This document shows positions 421-35,298 of a DNA stretch of 64,000 nucleotides, one piece after another. Both the position numbers and the translations under genes were made by a program. The notes under the pieces were generated by a model. It did no database searches. It saw nothing but the letters and a program-made list of their open reading frames with translations, and was not told the origin of the DNA. The DNA is from Candidatus Afararchaeum irisae (lineage in GTDB: Archaea; Halobacteriota; Halobacteria; Halobacteriales; Afararchaeaceae), in NCBI GenBank assembly GCA_034190545.1, contig JAXIOF010000002.1, forward strand, positions 3,246 to 67,245. Reading direction: 5' to 3'. Numbering within the stretch: position 1 is the stretch's first letter; each line of letters begins with the position of its first letter.

Positions 421-1104
421 CTACACGAAGCTACTCAGTATATGAGCGACTGACGACACTGATCTCTCCCAGACTGAGAAGCCTGCGACTACGTTGAGTA
501 CTGTGTCTCCCGCGAAGAAGACGAAGAGAACTGCGCCCGCGTAATGCGCCTTCCTGACGTCGAACCTGTGGGAGAACCTGTGGAAGAAGAAGGCGTTTGC
601 TATGCTTACGGGAATTATAGCGAGCATCTCGCCCGCCCAGATAGCGGGATGAGCACCGTACTGAGCCGCGAGTCCTATCGTCACGACCTGTGTCTTGTCT
701 CCGAACTCTCCCGCAGCCATCATAGCGAATATAGGAAGGAAGCCGCCGAGGTAGTCGGGGACATCCCAGCCGAGAACTGAGACGTCGACGTCGTCGTAGA
801 CTTTCTCTGACTCCTCTGGGGTTCCCGATCCGGGGGCTGACCTGTATAGGAGGACTGCGAATACCACGAAGAGAGACGCGCTGAAGACGTCGAGGTAGAC
901 CTCGGGGAGAGCCCCCTTGAGCGCGTTTCCGAGGAGTATCTCTAAGGCTGTCCAGCCGGCGAAAGCGGTTCCGGCGGCGGAGACGACGACGACAGGGTTG
1001 TACCTCGTCGACAGACCCGCTATTATGAGCTGAACCTTCTCGCCGGGCAGAACCGCAAGCTGTGTCGTGAAGGCTATTACGAGTAGTGTTATCCAGTCTA
1101 TCAT
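421..1104 (-). CDS. UPF0016 (GDT1/TMEM165-type) putative Mn2+/Ca2+ transporter
   Basis: 227-aa polytopic membrane ORF. It carries two copies of the family motif E-x-G-D-K-[ST]-type: 'LPGEKVQLI' in the N-terminal half and 'GEFGDKTQVV' in the C-terminal half. It lies 7 nt downstream of the MntR-like gene on the same strand. Confidence 0.8.
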   Translation of the reverse strand: MIDWITLLVIAFTTQLAVLPGEKVQLIIAGLSTRYNPVVVVSAAGTAFAGWTALEILLGNALKGALPEVYLDVFSASLFVVFAVLLYRSAPGSGTPEESEKVYDDVDVSVLGWDVPDYLGGFLPIFAMMAAGEFGDKTQVVTIGLAAQYGAHPAIWAGEMLAIIPVSIANAFFFHRFSHRFDVRKAHYAGAVLFVFFAGDTVLNVVAGFSVWERSVSSVAHILSSFV

Positions 1105-1110
1105 CTCTGT

Positions 1111-2096: not shown

Positions 2097-3569
2097 TTAC
2101 ACTCCGTATATCTCGCCGAACTTCTCCTCGGCGTACTCGACGAAGGGATCGACGTTGAGGTCGTCGCCCGTGACGCGTCTGATGAGGTCGTCAGTCTCGT
2201 ACCGCTTGCCGTGTCGGTGTATCTCTTCCTTGAGCCAGTCCCTGAGGTGTGAGAAGTTGCCTCGGCTTATCTTACCATTGAGGTCTTCTATCTCGTCGTC
2301 GGCGGCGTCGAAGACCTGTGCGGCGAGGACTGAGCCGAGCGAGTAGGTCGGGAAGTAGCCGAAGCTTCCGTGTGACCAGTGTATGTCCTGGAGACAGCCC
2401 TCGGCGTCGTTCTCGGGTCTTATTCCGAGGTACTCCTCGACCTTGTCGTTCCAGATCCCAGGGACTTCGTCGACCTCTATCTCTCCACGTATCAGGTCTT
2501 TCTCTATCTCGAACCTCAGTACTATATGCATATGGTAGGTGAGTTCGTCCGACTCGACACGTACTGGATGGGGAGAGACCTCGTTGACCGACCGGTAGAG
2601 GGCACCGGGAGAGACTTCGGTCTCCAGGGTTTGGTTCAGCTTAGGCGCGAAGTAGTCCCAGAAGGCGCGCGACCGCCCGACGTGGTTCTCCCAGAGGCGC
2701 GACTGTGACTCGTGTACTGTGAGGTCACGCGCCTCCGACAGGGGTGTTGCATAGCCTTCGTCGGGTAGACCCTGTATGTAGAGGGCGTGTCCCATCTCGT
2801 GTATAGTCGACATAAGCGCGTCGAGCGGATTAGTGAACCTCGTGGTCACCCTCGCGTCGAAGGTGTTGCCCGACGTGAACGGATGGGGCGAGGTGTCGAG
2901 CCTCCCACGCGAGAAGTCGTACCCCATCTCTTCGAGAGCCGTCTCGGCGATCTCCCTCTGTCTCTCGTCGGTGTACTCCGACCCAAGCACCTTCTCAACC
3001 TCGACGTCGGAGTCTCTTATGTCGTCGATGAGAGGCTTGATCGAGTCCCTGAGGTTAGTCAGGACTCTCTCAGCGGTTTCGAGGTCGATGTAGGGCTCGA
3101 AGTCGTCGAACAGAACTGCGTAGGGGTCTCTGTCGGGATCTATCTCCTCGGCGTACTCCCTCTTGAGTTCGACGAGCCTTTCGAGAGTCGGCGCGAACTC
3201 GTCGAAGTCGCTCTTCTCACGCGCCTTCTTCCAGACGGGATGTGCGCGCGAAGAGGTGTCTGATATCTCCTCGACGAGTTCGTCGGGAACCTCGACCGAC
3301 CTCGTGTACTCGCGTTGAATCTCCCTCACGACTGCTTCCTCGTCTTCTCCGTTCGGCTTGACGGAGTCGAGGATCTCCCCCGTCTCGTCGTCGGTGAGTA
3401 TCTCGTGTTTGATCGACGAGAGAGTCGAGAGCTCCTGTGCGCGCGCCTCGACACCCTTCTCGGGCATCATGACTTCCTGATCCCAGTTGAGCACCGACGA
3501 CGCGTTCTCGACGTTACGTATACGTCTCACCCTCTCGACGAGGTCGTCGTATTCGTGTTCCATACTCAC
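2097..3569 (-). CDS. Carboxypeptidase Taq-type metallopeptidase (family M32)
   Basis: 490 aa with the HExxH motif 'HEMGHALY' and the C-terminal 'IHWSHGSFGYFPTYSLG' block typical of M32 carboxypeptidases. Confidence 0.9.
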   Translation of the reverse strand: MSMEHEYDDLVERVRRIRNVENASSVLNWDQEVMMPEKGVEARAQELSTLSSIKHEILTDDETGEILDSVKPNGEDEEAVVREIQREYTRSVEVPDELVEEISDTSSRAHPVWKKAREKSDFDEFAPTLERLVELKREYAEEIDPDRDPYAVLFDDFEPYIDLETAERVLTNLRDSIKPLIDDIRDSDVEVEKVLGSEYTDERQREIAETALEEMGYDFSRGRLDTSPHPFTSGNTFDARVTTRFTNPLDALMSTIHEMGHALYIQGLPDEGYATPLSEARDLTVHESQSRLWENHVGRSRAFWDYFAPKLNQTLETEVSPGALYRSVNEVSPHPVRVESDELTYHMHIVLRFEIEKDLIRGEIEVDEVPGIWNDKVEEYLGIRPENDAEGCLQDIHWSHGSFGYFPTYSLGSVLAAQVFDAADDEIEDLNGKISRGNFSHLRDWLKEEIHRHGKRYETDDLIRRVTGDDLNVDPFVEYAEEKFGEIYGV

Positions 3570-4792: not shown

Positions 4793-5793
4793 TTAATTAG
4801 CTAAAATCCGTCTCAGTTCCTCGATGTACTCTTCGTACGAGTATCCGAGGCGCGAGAGCCAGACGTCCTGGTACGAGGGATGTAGAACCGGTACGACTCT
4901 CACGCCGAGCGAGTCACAGTCGACGGCTTCGAGGACTGAGTCGACGAATCCGTCTAACTCCATTCCCTCCTTTTCGAGGACGAGACTCGTCGAGTGTTTC
5001 CCTGTCGTGACGACTACCTCTGGATCTATATAGAATAGCGAGAGTACCCCGAAGCTTGACTTCGGGGGTGAATCGCGTCGGAATGTATAAGTAGTATTAA
5101 CAACAATATTGTAGTACGGCAGTTTGGTATAGGGCTTACTGCCTTATCAACAAACAGCAAACCCTGATGTATAGCCTTAATACACGGGCGATAATACGTG
5201 GACTGGATCGAAAGGTCCGAAGGTAAGCCAAATTCCCCGTATGGGGAGGATGGTCTAGTGGCAAAGTGGACTTGTCTCTAAGCAAAGCTTAGAGGCTAAC
5301 GAAGCTCCGCTTCGTGATGCCGTAGAGAATAAGACCCACCCATAGTAGGTGTCTGAGGTAGACTTCTCTAGAAGCCTCGGAGCTTGACTCCGAGGTAGTT
5401 CACCCCGTCTATCTCGTCCTCAAGATGTCTCCAGCAGTTTTCGAGTTCGTCGCGCGCAGGCTCACGGTTCGAGTCACCGTCCTCTTCCTCGGGGAAACAC
5501 TTGACAGCGTTCGTGTAGTAGACGTCCTCGGCGTCGACACCAGCGTCCTCGATAAGCTCACGCACCTTCTGTCCCGAGTGGCGCGAGGTGTAGGCGAGAC
5601 CCGTCCAGTTGCCCCCTCTCCATCTCTCGGCGTCGGGGTCTCCCTTTCCGGGTGCCTCACCCACGACGATCACTCTTGCGTCTTCGGCTCCGTTGCCCCA
5701 CGAGATACAGCTGCGCGACTCGACGAGTGACGCACATCTCTCACAGCCCTCTTCTAGGACGTTTCTCGTCCTCGGATCGGGAAAGTCGGGCAT
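4793..5793 (-). pseudogene. Family-4 (Fe-S) uracil-DNA glycosylase interrupted by a 374-bp non-coding element. The two intact halves are 5399-5793 and 4793-5024.
   Basis: The N-terminal half (the track ORF 5368-5793) has CERC..., the 'VVGEAPG' motif, 'AVKCFP' and 'ENCWRHL'. The C-terminal half has no Met and so is absent from the track. My translation gives (I)DPEVVVTTGKHSTSLVL...VVPVLHPSYQDVW...RRILAN*, with stop at 4793-4795, and it carries the HPS motif. Neither half has a frameshift or an internal stop. Confidence 0.85.
5025..5398 (-). mobile_element. Hairpin-ended non-coding element, copy A (IS200/IS605-derived PATE-like or intron-like), inserted in the UDG gene and co-oriented with it
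   Basis: Sense-strand 5' end: CTA-CCTCGGAG-TCAAG-CTCCGAGG-CTTC. Sense-strand 3' end: ACGCGATTCAC-CCCCGAAG-TCAAG-CTTCGGGG-TACTCTCCGCTATTCTATATAGA. Plus-strand hairpin coordinates are 5375-5395 and 5048-5068. The interior holds many short stem-loops, for example CTCTAAGC-AAA-GCTTAGAG, GAAGC-TCC-GCTTC, CCCC-GTAT-GGGG and GGCAGT...ACTGCC. The ends match copy B at 34878-35298. The exact boundaries are inferred. Confidence 0.65.
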
Positions 5794-32056: not shown

Positions 32057-34876
32057 ATGGAGATAACACAGGTAGACGAAAACATCTACGAGATCGGGCA
32101 GGAAGACGACATGAACGTTCCTGCGAGGGTCTACGCTTCTGAGCTTCTTCTGGAGAAGATCGAACAGGACAAGACGCTCGAACAGGTCAGAAACGTCGCC
32201 ACCCTACCGGGGATACAGAAGTACTCTATCGTTCTCCCCGACGGTCACCAGGGATACGGATTCCCGATAGGCGGCGTCGCGGCTGTCGACATGGACGACG
32301 GAGTCATAAGTCCCGGAGGTATCGGCTATGACATCAACTGTCTCTCGGGGGACACCGAGGTTCTGCTGGAGTTCGGGAGGAGGAGGAGTATAGAAGACCT
32401 CAGACAGAGCTTTGACGACGAGAGGGCTGTCGTAGCTACTTCCGACTCCGCCGACACCTCAGGAATACATCTGTTCACTCAGGACGAGAAGACAGTATAC
32501 GAGGTAGACACCGGACTCCGGACAGTAGAGGCGAGTCCCGACCATCCCTTCTTAACCCCTGAGGGCATGAAGCCCCTACGAGAGATCGACGAGGGCGACG
32601 AGGTCTACGTCTATCCCTTCGAGGGTATCGAGGACGAAGATCCCGACGACGTCGTACTCCTCGACTCCGACGACTTCTCCTCCGAGGTCGCTGAGGTTCT
32701 CGAAGACCGCGGTCTCCTGCCTCTCTCGACGGCTGACAGGGAGTTCAACATACTCCTGAAACTCGTGGGATACCACACGGGCGACGGATCATTCAACCGC
32801 CACGGTGACACAGCCTTCTACGGAGAGGAGGAGGGTCTCAGACAGATACAGGAGGACATACGCCAACTCGGATTCGAGCCGTCGAGGATCTACTCGCGCG
32901 AGAGGAGCCACGAGATAGACGGGTCGGAGTTCGAGGCTGTCGAAAACACAGTCAAGTCGACCTCGAAGGCGTTCCAGAGGCTACTCGTCGCCCTCGGTGC
33001 ACCCGAGGGAGTCAAGGTAGACTCAGAGTTCACGACTCCCAACTACCTCGACGGCTGTACCGACTGGCAGAAGGCACTATATCTCTCGGCTTTCTTCGGT
33101 GCCGAGATGAGTAGTCCCGCTCCTCAGACAGACAAGAACCTCTACTGTCCTACGGTGTCACACAGCCGCAGGTCGGGAGGAGGCGACGACTTCGTACGTG
33201 AGATAAAGTCGTACCTCGAAGACCTCGGCATAGAGACCAACTCGACGGAGGAGTTCGAGTCTGAGACAGGGGCAACGAGATACCGTTTCGGTGTCAAGAA
33301 CGACTCCGAGAACCTGATACGTCTCTTCACGCGTGTCGGTTACACATACGCAGTCGAGAAACAGAAGGAAGCCGTCAGAGCCACAGTCTATCTGCGTGAG
33401 AAGGAACGTGCGATAGACGAACGCCGGACTGCGTCTGAGAGAGCGGTCGCGATGTACGACGGCGGCGTAGCCCCGAAGGAGATAAAGTCACGTCTCGAAA
33501 TAAACGACAGGTTCGTCGAGAGGAGCATATACGGCGACGCCAGAGCCGAGGTCAGACCACCCGCTGACTTCCCGGGATACGACGACTTCACCGACTCGGT
33601 CGATGTCGACGACGGATTCCGTGTCACGACTCAGGTCGAGTCGATAGACGAGATAGGCGAAAAGACCGTATACGACATAGGCGTAAGACACGACGCCCAC
33701 AGCTTCGTCGCAGACGGCTTCGTCGTCTCGAACTGCGGCGTCCGTGTTCTGCGTACAAACCTGAGTTACGACGACGTGAGGGGCACGGGAGAGAAGCTAG
33801 CCGAGAGGCTCTACCAGACAGTCCCGTCGGGTCTCGGCAAGGGAAGCTATCTAGACACAGACCTCGACGACATAGAAGGTATACTCGAAGGCGGCATGGA
33901 GTGGATGCTCGAAAACCGACACGCCTTCGAGGAGGATCTCGAACACTGTGAGGAGAACGGCAGGCTACCCGGCGATCCGAAGGCTGTTCCCGACGAGGCG
34001 AAGGAGAGAGGAGTCAGCCAGGTTGGATCGCTCGGATCGGGCAACCACTTCTTAGAGGTACAGAGGGTCTCGAACCTCTACGACGAACCGACCGCCGAAG
34101 CCTACGGTCTTGAGGAGGATCAGATCGTTGTCATGATACACACGGGGTCGAGGGGTCTCGGACACCAGACGTGTACCAACTACCTCAGGAGGTTCGAGAG
34201 GGAGTATCCCGATATAGTCGAGGATCTCCCCGACAAGGAGCTCATATACGCGCCGATAGGCGACGACCCAGCCGAGGAGTACAGAGACGCTATGTACGCC
34301 GCCGCCAACTTCGCGTGGTCGAACAGACAGGCGATAACACAGGCTGTGAGAGAAGTCTTCAACGAGATGTACAGTATCCGTGAGAGGGACGTCGAACTCG
34401 TCTACGATGTCTGTCACAACATAGCCAAGGAGGAGACCCACACCGTAGACGGCGACGAGAAGGAGCTACTCGTCCATCGGAAGGGCGCGACGAGAGCCTT
34501 TCCCGCAGGAAGGGAGGAGATACCCGATGTCTACCAGGACGTAGGACAGCCCGTTCTCATACCCGGTACGATGGGCACCGACTCGTGGATACTCTCGGGA
34601 GGTGAGAAGTCGCTCGACCTCTCGTTCGGTTCAACCGCACACGGTGCTGGCAGGGTGATGTCGAGGACACAGGCGAAGAAGGACTACTGGGGACGTGACG
34701 TACAGGAACAGCTCGCGGAGAGGGAGATTTACGTCAGGGCAGAGAGCGGATCGACTATCGCCGAGGAAGCACCCGGAGCGTACAAGGACGTCGATGAGGT
34801 CATGAGGGTGAGCGACGAACTCGGAATAGGTGAGAGGGTCTCACGTCTCGCTCCTATAGCGACTATAAAGGGGTGA
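32057..34876 (+). CDS. rtcB: RNA-splicing ligase RtcB interrupted by a 465-aa intein
   Basis: The exteins read ...LPDGHQGYGFPIGGVAA...GGIGYDIN | intein | CGVRVLRTN...GSGNHFLEVQ...HTGSRGLGHQ...HNIAKEE...GSTAHGAGR...IATIKG*. Joining them recreates GYDINCGVR. Confidence 0.95.
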   Translation: MEITQVDENIYEIGQEDDMNVPARVYASELLLEKIEQDKTLEQVRNVATLPGIQKYSIVLPDGHQGYGFPIGGVAAVDMDDGVISPGGIGYDINCLSGDTEVLLEFGRRRSIEDLRQSFDDERAVVATSDSADTSGIHLFTQDEKTVYEVDTGLRTVEASPDHPFLTPEGMKPLREIDEGDEVYVYPFEGIEDEDPDDVVLLDSDDFSSEVAEVLEDRGLLPLSTADREFNILLKLVGYHTGDGSFNRHGDTAFYGEEEGLRQIQEDIRQLGFEPSRIYSRERSHEIDGSEFEAVENTVKSTSKAFQRLLVALGAPEGVKVDSEFTTPNYLDGCTDWQKALYLSAFFGAEMSSPAPQTDKNLYCPTVSHSRRSGGGDDFVREIKSYLEDLGIETNSTEEFESETGATRYRFGVKNDSENLIRLFTRVGYTYAVEKQKEAVRATVYLREKERAIDERRTASERAVAMYDGGVAPKEIKSRLEINDRFVERSIYGDARAEVRPPADFPGYDDFTDSVDVDDGFRVTTQVESIDEIGEKTVYDIGVRHDAHSFVADGFVVSNCGVRVLRTNLSYDDVRGTGEKLAERLYQTVPSGLGKGSYLDTDLDDIEGILEGGMEWMLENRHAFEEDLEHCEENGRLPGDPKAVPDEAKERGVSQVGSLGSGNHFLEVQRVSNLYDEPTAEAYGLEEDQIVVMIHTGSRGLGHQTCTNYLRRFEREYPDIVEDLPDKELIYAPIGDDPAEEYRDAMYAAANFAWSNRQAITQAVREVFNEMYSIRERDVELVYDVCHNIAKEETHTVDGDEKELLVHRKGATRAFPAGREEIPDVYQDVGQPVLIPGTMGTDSWILSGGEKSLDLSFGSTAHGAGRVMSRTQAKKDYWGRDVQEQLAEREIYVRAESGSTIAEEAPGAYKDVDEVMRVSDELGIGERVSRLAPIATIKG
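32339..33733 (+). other. Intein (465 aa) with a LAGLIDADG domain, in RtcB
   Basis: It starts 'CLSGDTEVLL'. Block B is 'EASPDHPFLT'. The LAGLIDADG-like helices are 'LLKLVGYHTGDGSF' and 'ALYLSAFFGAEMS'. It ends 'HSFVADGFVVSN' followed by the +1 Cys. Coordinates were checked on the DNA (TGT at 32339-32341, AAC at 33731-33733). Confidence 0.85.
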
Positions 34877-34877
34877 A

Positions 34878-35298
34878 GTACCTCGGGGACAAGCCCCGAG
34901 GCTTCACCGTCTTGACCGCACGCCCAAAAACTGGGCGTGCCGTCGCAGGCGAATTTAATTCCCCTCGACCTTCCCGAAATGGGTCGGTTGGAATTCACAC
35001 CCGAACGCTCGGTGCGTCCGTGAGGGCCGGCGGCTCCACCCCGCCCGACAACTCCCGTCGCACCACGCCAAAGACGCGGGTTTTGAGAGGAGTCGCATTT
35101 CCTTGCAACTGCCGGCAGTTGCTTCGGATTAAGGTCTTTAATCCACGTCGCAACTGTATTCGTCGATACGGCAGGTTGCATCATATAGCTTACGCAATTC
35201 ACCCTCGGGGTCAAGTCAAGGAAAATCTTTGATTTTCCGTATCCCAAAAAGCTCTGCTTTTTGAAGACCCCGAGGCACTCTCGCTGTATTCCTGTAGA
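34878..35298 (+). mobile_element. Hairpin-ended non-coding element, copy B (same family as 5025-5398), starting immediately after the rtcB stop codon
   Basis: 5' end: GTA-CCTCGGGG-ACAAG-CCCCGAGG-CTTC (hairpin at 34881-34901). 3' end: ACGCAATTCAC-CCTCGGGGTC...GACCCCGAGG-CACTCTCGCTGTATTCCTGTAGA (stem arms at 35203-35212 and 35266-35275). The interior is GC-rich and full of stems. The only ORFs across it (34729-35247 on the minus strand and 34873-35232 on the plus strand) are basic and Arg-rich, unlike the acidic proteome. Confidence 0.6.

Follow-up and report, generated by a model that had tools for sequence, protein, structure and literature searches.

Palindrome-associated transposable elements (PATEs) are known from Haloquadratum walsbyi, where they include HqIRS46 and HqIRS56 and where core deletions reach ~52 bp (Dyall-Smith et al. 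2011, PMC3119063). Expression in Halobacterium has been shown for RNAs from the 3' end of tnpB genes and for an RNA derived from a PATE (Gomes-Filho et al. 2015, PMC4615843), and the family sot2652 stands for a transcript that overlaps a Halobacterium tnpB at its 3' end (Rfam). PATEs 'often encode ωRNAs', which are used by TnpB in trans (Meers et al. 2023, PMC10055086), and circular ωRNAs were reported from haloarchaea (Picinato et al. 2025, PMC12558985). In the present study two related loci were compared in a 64-kb stretch of Candidatus Afararchaeum irisae (contig JAXIOF010000002.1; GC content 56%), termed the window, whose coordinates are used throughout. Copy B is located 3' of rtcB, the gene of an RNA ligase, and copy A inside a uracil-DNA glycosylase (UDG) gene. 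Both loci are very probably PATEs, that is, transposase-less internal-deletion derivatives of the IS200/IS605-family (IS1341-type, tnpB-bearing) elements of Halobacteria.

The original prediction, drawn from the letters of the window, had already placed both copies among the non-autonomous PATEs of the IS200/IS605 type. This class assignment is supported by the element ends, by empty insertion sites and by relatives that carry tnpB, while the orientation of the elements had to be reversed. The terms LE (left end) and RE (right end) refer here to the element's own strand, which is the tnpB-sense strand. Loci retrieved as relatives carry labels such as L006.

Element limits, target pentamer and DNA guide

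The window contains the 19-nt motif GGGGTGAANTACCTCGGRG at two places only, 34870 (plus strand) and 5388-5406 (minus strand), and 100 shuffles gave an expectation of 0. At both loci a hairpin of 8 bp with a 5-nt loop lies near each end. The stems of the four hairpins (CCTCGGAG, CCTCGGGG, CCCCGAAG and again CCTCGGGG) vary at positions 3, 6 and 7, and each of these changes is compensated on the opposite arm, a pattern of structural selection. The alignment of the two copies stops outside these ends, and copies A and B are the only family copies in the window. The original prediction of a second copy with conserved ends at the rtcB stop codon, with compensated stems and an unrelated interior, was thus borne out. 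Its description of the ends also held: the hairpins are subterminal and lie in the same orientation on one strand, with an LE spacer of 17-18 nt against an RE tail of 8 nt. Terminal inverted repeats are absent; the 12 nt at the start of the LE, AGGAATACAGCG, bear no relation to the last 12 nt of the RE read as reverse complement, GTGAAGTACCTC. The elements of 421 nt (copy B) and 374 nt (copy A) are too short for a transposase gene.

The limits of the elements were set by three empty sites, two of them in Halorutilales archaeon Cl-col2-1, the relative used for comparison at both host genes. Its rtcB region reads AAAGGG/GTAGAAACGAG (locus GCGACTATAAAGGGGTAGAAACGAG; AAAGGGGTAGAAACGAG), and that of the window AAAGGG-(GTGAAG…TTCCT)-GTAGAAACGAG. 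The uninterrupted UDG site of the relative is GAGATAGATCC, with the codons GAC GAG ATA GAT CCC. At the third site, the intact tnpB element of L008 has the sequence GAGTCTGC/ACCCAG, in which L006 carries an insertion (GAGTCTAC-element-ACCCAG). When (G/A)TAGA is taken as the host pentamer, the mismatches to the empty site amount to 0 for rtcB, 1 for UDG and 1 for L006/L008; when GTGAA is taken as host, they rise to 2, 5 and 3. The three empty sites therefore identify TCTAY on the element strand as host DNA and TTCAC as the end of the element. Nothing is duplicated at any of them.

With this result the original placement of the insertions 3' of a GTGAA motif, with right ends in TAGA, is reversed. 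The limits it gave lay 5 nt off at either end of copy A and at copy B's right end; at copy B's left end the shift was only 3 nt, because the range given there started at the shared octamer. This 8-nt flank is indeed present at both copies. Across the family only GTGAA is shared, which is the element's own terminus; the flanks upstream of it are unrelated and the GGG is coincidental. In addition, the 3' end of copy A had been transcribed as TACTCTCCGCT with a one-base error; it reads TACTCTCGCT, so that no gap to copy B remains.

On the element strand, the order is target TCTAC or TCTAT, spacer of 17-18 nt, hairpin, GTGAA, interior, hairpin and the tail TA(C/G)TTCAC, and the block conserved in the family extends from TCTAC to TTCAC. 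Copy B is a complete PATE on the minus strand (34873..35293, LE at 35293, RE at 34873), with full-length copies of 80-89% identity in Natrinema, Natronococcus, Halobiforma, Natronorubrum and others. Its target pentamer TCTAC (35294..35298, minus; GTAGA on the plus strand) is present in the uninterrupted relative and contains the native rtcB stop TAG at 35295-35297. It is followed by the 18-nt LE spacer AGGAATACAGCGAGAGTG (35276..35293, minus), whose last 4 nt, AGTG at 35276-35279, are the putative DNA guide for TCTAC. The LE hairpin (35203..35275, minus; stem 35203-35212/35266-35275) encloses an extra module in its loop, and directly 3' of it lies the GTGAA box (35198..35202, minus; TTCAC on the plus strand). 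This box was found in all recovered LEs, since the LE search required it, and also in L120, L068 and L030. The RE consists of the subterminal hairpin CCTCGGGG-CTTGT-CCCCGAGG (34881..34901, minus) and the tail TACTTCAC (34873..34880, minus; GTGAAGTA on the plus strand), identified as the element terminus by the family ends and by the empty site.

Copy A represents a different subfamily and occupies 5030..5403 on the plus strand, with ends that match the family. The host pentamer TCTAT (5025..5029, plus) is part of the UDG codons ATA GAT on the minus strand, and the relative reads ATAGATCC at this position. The LE (5030..5067, plus) comprises the 17-nt spacer ATAGAATAGCGAGAGTA, which contains the putative guide AGTA at 5043-5046, and a hairpin at 5047-5067, the RE (5375..5403, plus) a hairpin at 5375-5395 and the tail TAGTTCAC at 5396-5403.

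The mechanistic archetype of the IS200/IS605 family is reportedly IS608 of Helicobacter pylori, as worked out by Barabas and co-workers in 2008. It is said to insert 3' of a short target without duplication, to carry its subterminal hairpins on one strand and to combine a long spacer at the LE with a short tail at the RE. Its 4-nt guide, located 5' of the LE hairpin, reportedly matches the target with both read in the same 5'-3' order (TTAC/AAAG). The corresponding pair in the elements studied here is TCTAC/AGTG, with the third base unpaired. Among about 50 LEs recovered from family loci, four classes of guide and target were distinguished: AGTG with TCTAC in about 45 copies, where TCTAC stands directly 5' of the LE; AGTA with TCTAT in three (copy A, L119 and L120); ACTG with TGTAC in two (L030 and L117); and AGTT with TCTAA in one (the insertion sequence of L068). 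Guide and target positions 1, 2, 4 and 5 complement each other when read in the same 5'-3' order, and target position 3 is free, as in the TCGAC of L008. We infer from this covariation that the 4 nt 5' of the LE hairpin act as guide, as expected for the DNA-guided targeting of IS200/IS605 elements. Covariation, the 17-18 nt spacer and the 8-nt tail all fit target selection by a Y1 TnpA.

The box GTGAAG and the terminal CTTCAC can form an antiparallel stem extension in copy B, which is absent from the other subfamilies. A pairing of the flank GGGGTGAA with TTCACCCC near the other hairpin was considered and dropped, as the GGG is not conserved and GTGAA is the element end. A third reason was the insertion sequence of L068, which keeps GTGAA after the LE hairpin although its RE tail is TTTAC.

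Relatives with tnpB and the interior of copy B

A degenerate pattern of the hairpin at the originally predicted 5' end was used to scan GTDB species genomes, one genome per prokaryotic species. The scan yielded 117 stretches, all in Halobacteria and distributed over about 29 named genera; three of them belong to Halorutilus salinus and one to a metagenome-assembled genome (MAG) of Haloquadratum. The three Halorutilus salinus F3-133 copies (L045, L072 and L084) are of the copy B type and all lie at contig ends, which suggests that the assembly is broken at this repeat and that more copies exist than were counted.

The search beyond the window, which the original prediction had proposed for finding full-length members with transposon genes, retrieved several. 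In L030 and in L117, the latter from the Haloquadratum MAG, a 413-aa TnpB (Pfam OrfB_IS605, 4.8e-20; Cas12f1-like_TNB, 1.1e-22) is encoded between the same two hairpin types. The gene lies on the strand opposite to the originally assumed sense, and its 3' end abuts the hairpin that had been regarded as 5'. L120 likewise bears a tnpB on that opposite strand. On plasmid pNMAG02 of Natrialba magadii (NMAG_RS19185), the sequence TCTAT/AAAGAATAGCAGCGCGAGTA-hairpin-GTGAAG is followed by an annotated tnpB and then by hairpin-GGTACTTCAC; the last ~230 nt of this element, including the end of the tnpB open reading frame (ORF), align with copy B. The same LE layout was found in L068 from Haloferax prahovense, together with a tnpB and a divergent Y1_Tnp gene (2972..3430; E 6.5e-38). 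Ten long ORFs adjoining family copies, examined by eye only, were not TnpB-like and resembled ordinary neighbour genes.

Strand and direction of tnpB in these relatives identify the formerly assigned 5' end as RE and the 3' end as LE. The own strand of copy B is accordingly the minus strand and that of copy A the plus strand, which places both elements antisense to their host genes rather than co-oriented with them, as had been proposed.

The interior of copy B had been described as a different cargo. It is instead a conserved family component: the ~230-290 nt next to the RE are conserved at 72-90% identity in 72 distinct copies, and the core of this region in copy B occupies 34873..35102 on the minus strand. 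The consensus structure calculated with RNAalifold on the alignment of these copies comprises 48 pairs, and double compensatory changes occur in 17 of these. Read on the element's own strand, the structure contains 2874 Watson-Crick pairs, 525 G-U pairs and 53 non-pairs, while the same structure on the originally assumed strand contains 2874 Watson-Crick pairs, 23 G-U pairs and 555 non-pairs. The asymmetry of the G-U pairs and the covariation indicate that the conserved structure belongs to an RNA from the tnpB-sense strand. The scaffold is homologous to the tnpB 3' end plus RE.

On its own strand, copy B matched the Rfam model sot2652 (RF02657) with 27 bits (E 7.6e-4 in a 751-nt search), with ~70 model positions missing. 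The same model on the same strand gave 27-30 bits in copy B and three relatives and thus missed the gathering score of 61. At the gathering score, no Rfam family matched in the whole window. At E<=10, both loci gave only the weak sot2652 match and chance matches to microRNAs and riboswitches, and neither an intron nor a housekeeping RNA was among them. Taken together, covariation, the alignment with the Natrialba magadii tnpB and the weak sot2652 match indicate that copy B's interior is not cargo but an ωRNA/sotRNA-like scaffold, derived from an IS1341-type tnpB element at its 3' end. As judged from its scores, it is a divergent scaffold that lies outside the sot2652 family and is not covered by Rfam. 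Under most of the plasmid matches examined, the scaffold carries no annotated feature.

Were copy B transcribed from the minus strand, the flank would supply the guide at the end of its RNA, and this guide would be antisense to the final codons of rtcB. With this RNA, a TnpB whose gene lies elsewhere could cut the empty site (TCTAC plus flank), which would favour retention of the element. It is rather doubtful, as a further step, whether the tnpB-less family of the copy B type constitutes a reservoir of trans-acting guide RNAs, each copy with a different flank-derived guide for a TnpB whose gene lies elsewhere, or of antisense regulators, with the RNA of copy B ending antisense to the rtcB 3' end and perhaps even serving as a substrate of the RtcB ligase. 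The latter idea derives from the reported circular ωRNAs.

Several structural variants were observed in the family. The LE loop of copy B holds a ~52-nt module of two small hairpins (35213..35265) that is absent from most copies. A module with other stem sequences occupies the same position in L013, L022, L027 and L067, and its pairing is kept by covariation. These modules are reminiscent of the small mobile repeats for which PATE palindromes serve as targets in Haloquadratum. In L006 (1233..1607, compared with L008 2284..2458), a PATE of the copy B type is inserted in another tnpB element, within its sot0042/ωRNA region. In L057 (2617..4039) and L101 (4202..5585), copies of this type are themselves split by an insertion of ~1 kb with a DDE_Tnp_IS1595-like ORF. 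Two metagenomic loci, L123 (about 1048..1105, reverse strand) and L124 (2170..2227), contain 53-nt terminal-only derivatives of the Natrialba magadii type, which consist of LE spacer, one hybrid hairpin and RE tail and still have TCTAT in front.

The host genes

The rtcB ORF (32057..34876, plus) encodes 939 aa and ends with the stop TGA at 34874-34876. The RtcB of Cl-col2-1 has 474 aa, is 98% identical over the query and contains no intein. The extra ~465 aa in the window (residues about 96-560) represent an intein (Pfam Intein_splicing) with the borders …DIN/CLSGDT and …VVSN/CGVRV. The Pfam match of the window protein reaches the profile end (426/426). The native stop is the TAG inside the target pentamer. 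Because the terminal G of copy B completes the last Gly codon as its third base and the following TGA (34874-34876) stops translation, the end of the RtcB protein is unchanged. As read from the two orthologous loci, copy B has replaced the TAG stop of rtcB by a TGA of its own with no change in the protein.

The insertion of copy A into a family-4 UDG gene had been missed in the original prediction. The N-terminal two-thirds of the gene lie at 5404..5793 on the minus strand (ORF 5368..5793), where the reading frame continues into the element for 12 extra codons before its stop at 5368. The C-terminal part (4793..5029, minus) is read from 5026 downwards in another frame and contains the invariant His-Pro of the HPSYQ stretch (H180 and P181 in A2). 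The product is cut after Gly-129, carries 12 foreign codons and loses the conserved C-terminal region including this His-Pro. Removal of the 374 nt at 5030..5403 yields GAC GGG/ATA GAT CCA, in which 1 of 14 nt differs from the intact gene of the relative, and a full-length UDG that aligns gaplessly to the seven closest of 858 homologues. The UDG of Cl-col2-1 is intact and 88% identical. From this comparison, copy A truncates the UDG, and precise excision would restore the gene.

The interior of copy A (about 5075..5370) has a GC content of 45%, compared with 56% for the window, and folds with z scores of -4.1 and -5.75, the latter on its own strand. No relatives of this interior were found when it was compared by blastn with the 117 loci and the plasmids, where only the ends matched. 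A metagenome scan with the RE hairpin of copy A gave 0 matches; a second scan with the shared LE motif gave 7 loci, all of the Natrialba magadii type.

Mobility, alternative explanations and known systems

A Y1 (HUH) TnpA acting in trans would most likely excise the top strand of such an element as single-stranded DNA. The excised strand would then insert 3' of the target pentamer without duplication, and the target would be selected by base-pairing with the 4 nt that directly precede the LE hairpin. Copy B landed on the native TAG stop of rtcB and copy A in the UDG codons ATA GAT. On the evidence of the two uninterrupted orthologous sites, both insertions are shown to postdate the split from Cl-col2-1.

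Several observations weigh against the assignment of both loci to PATEs of this kind or narrow its reach. The mobilising enzyme is unseen: in agreement with the original prediction, the 64-kb window gave no match to tnpB in a tblastn search with four TnpB queries and no credible match to tnpA (best E=0.25) with an IS608 TnpA sequence, a query that worked as positive control on L068, where the gene is confirmed by Pfam. The Y1_Tnp gene of L068, the sole tnpA found beside a family member, is a pseudogene with two in-frame stops. Three of the about 50 LEs (L075, L043 and L087) break the guide rule, and no equally clean rule could be derived for the cleavage site at the RE. Transcription of either copy is predicted only, and to call the interior of copy A an ωRNA scaffold would be a guess, as nothing retrieved resembles it.

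It is very unlikely that the elements belong to the same transposon class but are oriented as originally proposed, with GTGAA as the flanking target and TAGA as the right terminus. GTGAA does stand right before the hairpin in both copies and in nearly all of the 117 family copies, and removal of the originally delimited 374 nt also restores the UDG frame (..GVN/PEVVV). The mismatch counts at rtcB, UDG and L006/L008 all favour (G/A)TAGA as host, tnpB of the relatives runs towards the originally assigned 5' end, and the 3 nt between GTGAA and the hairpin leave no room for a guide, while the opposite end has a spacer of 17-18 nt with a covarying guide. This orientation is already refuted by the empty sites. 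An ordinary miniature inverted-repeat transposable element (MITE), or a set of chance GC-rich palindromes or terminator hairpins, would explain that the elements are short, non-coding and rich in hairpins, with the RE hairpin of copy B right after a stop codon. The probability of this explanation is negligible: there are neither terminal inverted repeats nor duplications at the three empty sites, in conflict with a MITE, and chance palindromes are contradicted by a family of 117 members and by the 0 matches expected for the 19-nt motif. Both forms of it are already refuted.

Copy A could also be regarded as an intron (group I or IStron-like, group II, or archaeal with a bulge-helix-bulge motif) which is removed from the UDG mRNA and leaves the gene functional. 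Its in-frame removal from a conserved host gene and its folding would agree with this, as would the RNA ligase RtcB encoded in the neighbourhood. Such an intron is nevertheless extremely improbable. The group I and group II families of Rfam gave no match even at E<=10, the conserved RNA structure of the family is antisense to UDG, and the family members are mostly intergenic and beside tnpB. After the in-frame interruption had been recognized, a group I P1 helix with ωG and group II ends were sought in copy A, and none fits. By inspection only, without a dedicated search, the junctions 5404/5403 and 5030/5029 show no 3-4-3 bulge-helix-bulge. The sole pairing between intron and exon, ACTACCTC/GAGGTAGT, lies 5-18 nt off the junctions, is missing in the exon of the relative and is a coincidence. 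For copies of the B type, a domesticated, host-selected non-coding RNA gene of ωRNA-like nature, whose mobility is incidental or lost, seems decidedly unlikely. Such a role would agree with a covarying scaffold that is 72-90% identical in at least 72 copies of many genera, with the improved growth of Halobacterium upon overexpression of a PATE-derived RNA (PMC4615843) and with the regulated circular ωRNA isoforms of haloarchaea (PMC12558985). The need to fit TnpB explains the conservation of the scaffold equally well, though, and copy B is missing from the orthologous site of a relative with a 98% identical RtcB. An intact LE with target and guide logic speaks for recent transposition, and a family that is multi-copy, found at contig ends and subject to nested insertions is typical of selfish DNA.

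The assignment to PATEs has consequences for annotation. The UDG gene should be annotated as interrupted by a mobile element, rather than as two ORFs or as an intron-containing gene, and the TGA that ends rtcB as transposon-derived. The scaffold of copy B points to a widespread and structurally conserved ωRNA-like RNA of haloarchaea that is mostly unannotated and missed by Rfam. Presence and absence at genes with 98% (RtcB) and 88% (UDG) identical products show recent insertion and suggest that the elements are currently active in the small genomes of Halorutilales. The covariation of guide and target (AGTG/TCTAC and its variants) offers a testable targeting rule for haloarchaeal TnpA/TnpB systems, and the tnpA pseudogene of L068 recalls a long-standing question, namely what mobilises these elements when tnpA copies are pseudogenes (PMC3119063), which is touched here and not solved.

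The two loci belong to a kind of PATE that is already described; they are conceptually not new and will not surprise a specialist. Like the Haloquadratum PATEs (PMC3119063), they lack a transposase, inverted terminal repeats and a target duplication, and they share near-terminal IS605-like palindromes, a host-owned targeting oligonucleotide (4-5 bp in Haloquadratum) on the 5' side, a longer 5' than 3' spacer, an origin by core deletion and small repeats inserted in palindromes. The ~52 bp reached by core deletions in Haloquadratum compare with the 53-nt terminal-only versions found here. In contrast, the host lineage is Halorutilales, and the likeness to the HqIRS families is one of description only. 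The IS1341-type element of Natrialba magadii pNMAG02 has the same LE (TCTAT/…GCGAGTA-hairpin-GTGAAG) and RE (hairpin-GGTACTTCAC), and the copies in the window correspond to it without the ~1.1 kb that hold most of tnpB. The sotRNAs and ωRNAs (sot2652, RF02657; sot0042, RF02656; VNG_R0052 of Halobacterium salinarum, PMC4615843) likewise place a scaffold at the tnpB 3' end and RE that ends in the RE hairpin. The putative RNA scaffold of copy B differs by its divergence and scores far below the gathering score of 61. Compared with IS608, the elements have a pentamer target, spacers of 17-18 and 8 nt and no tnpA of their own. Gene-less PATE-like elements of Geobacillus stearothermophilus similarly keep LE, RE and often an ωRNA, with TnpA and TnpB presumed to act in trans (PMC10055086), but they are bacterial and unrelated in sequences and motifs.

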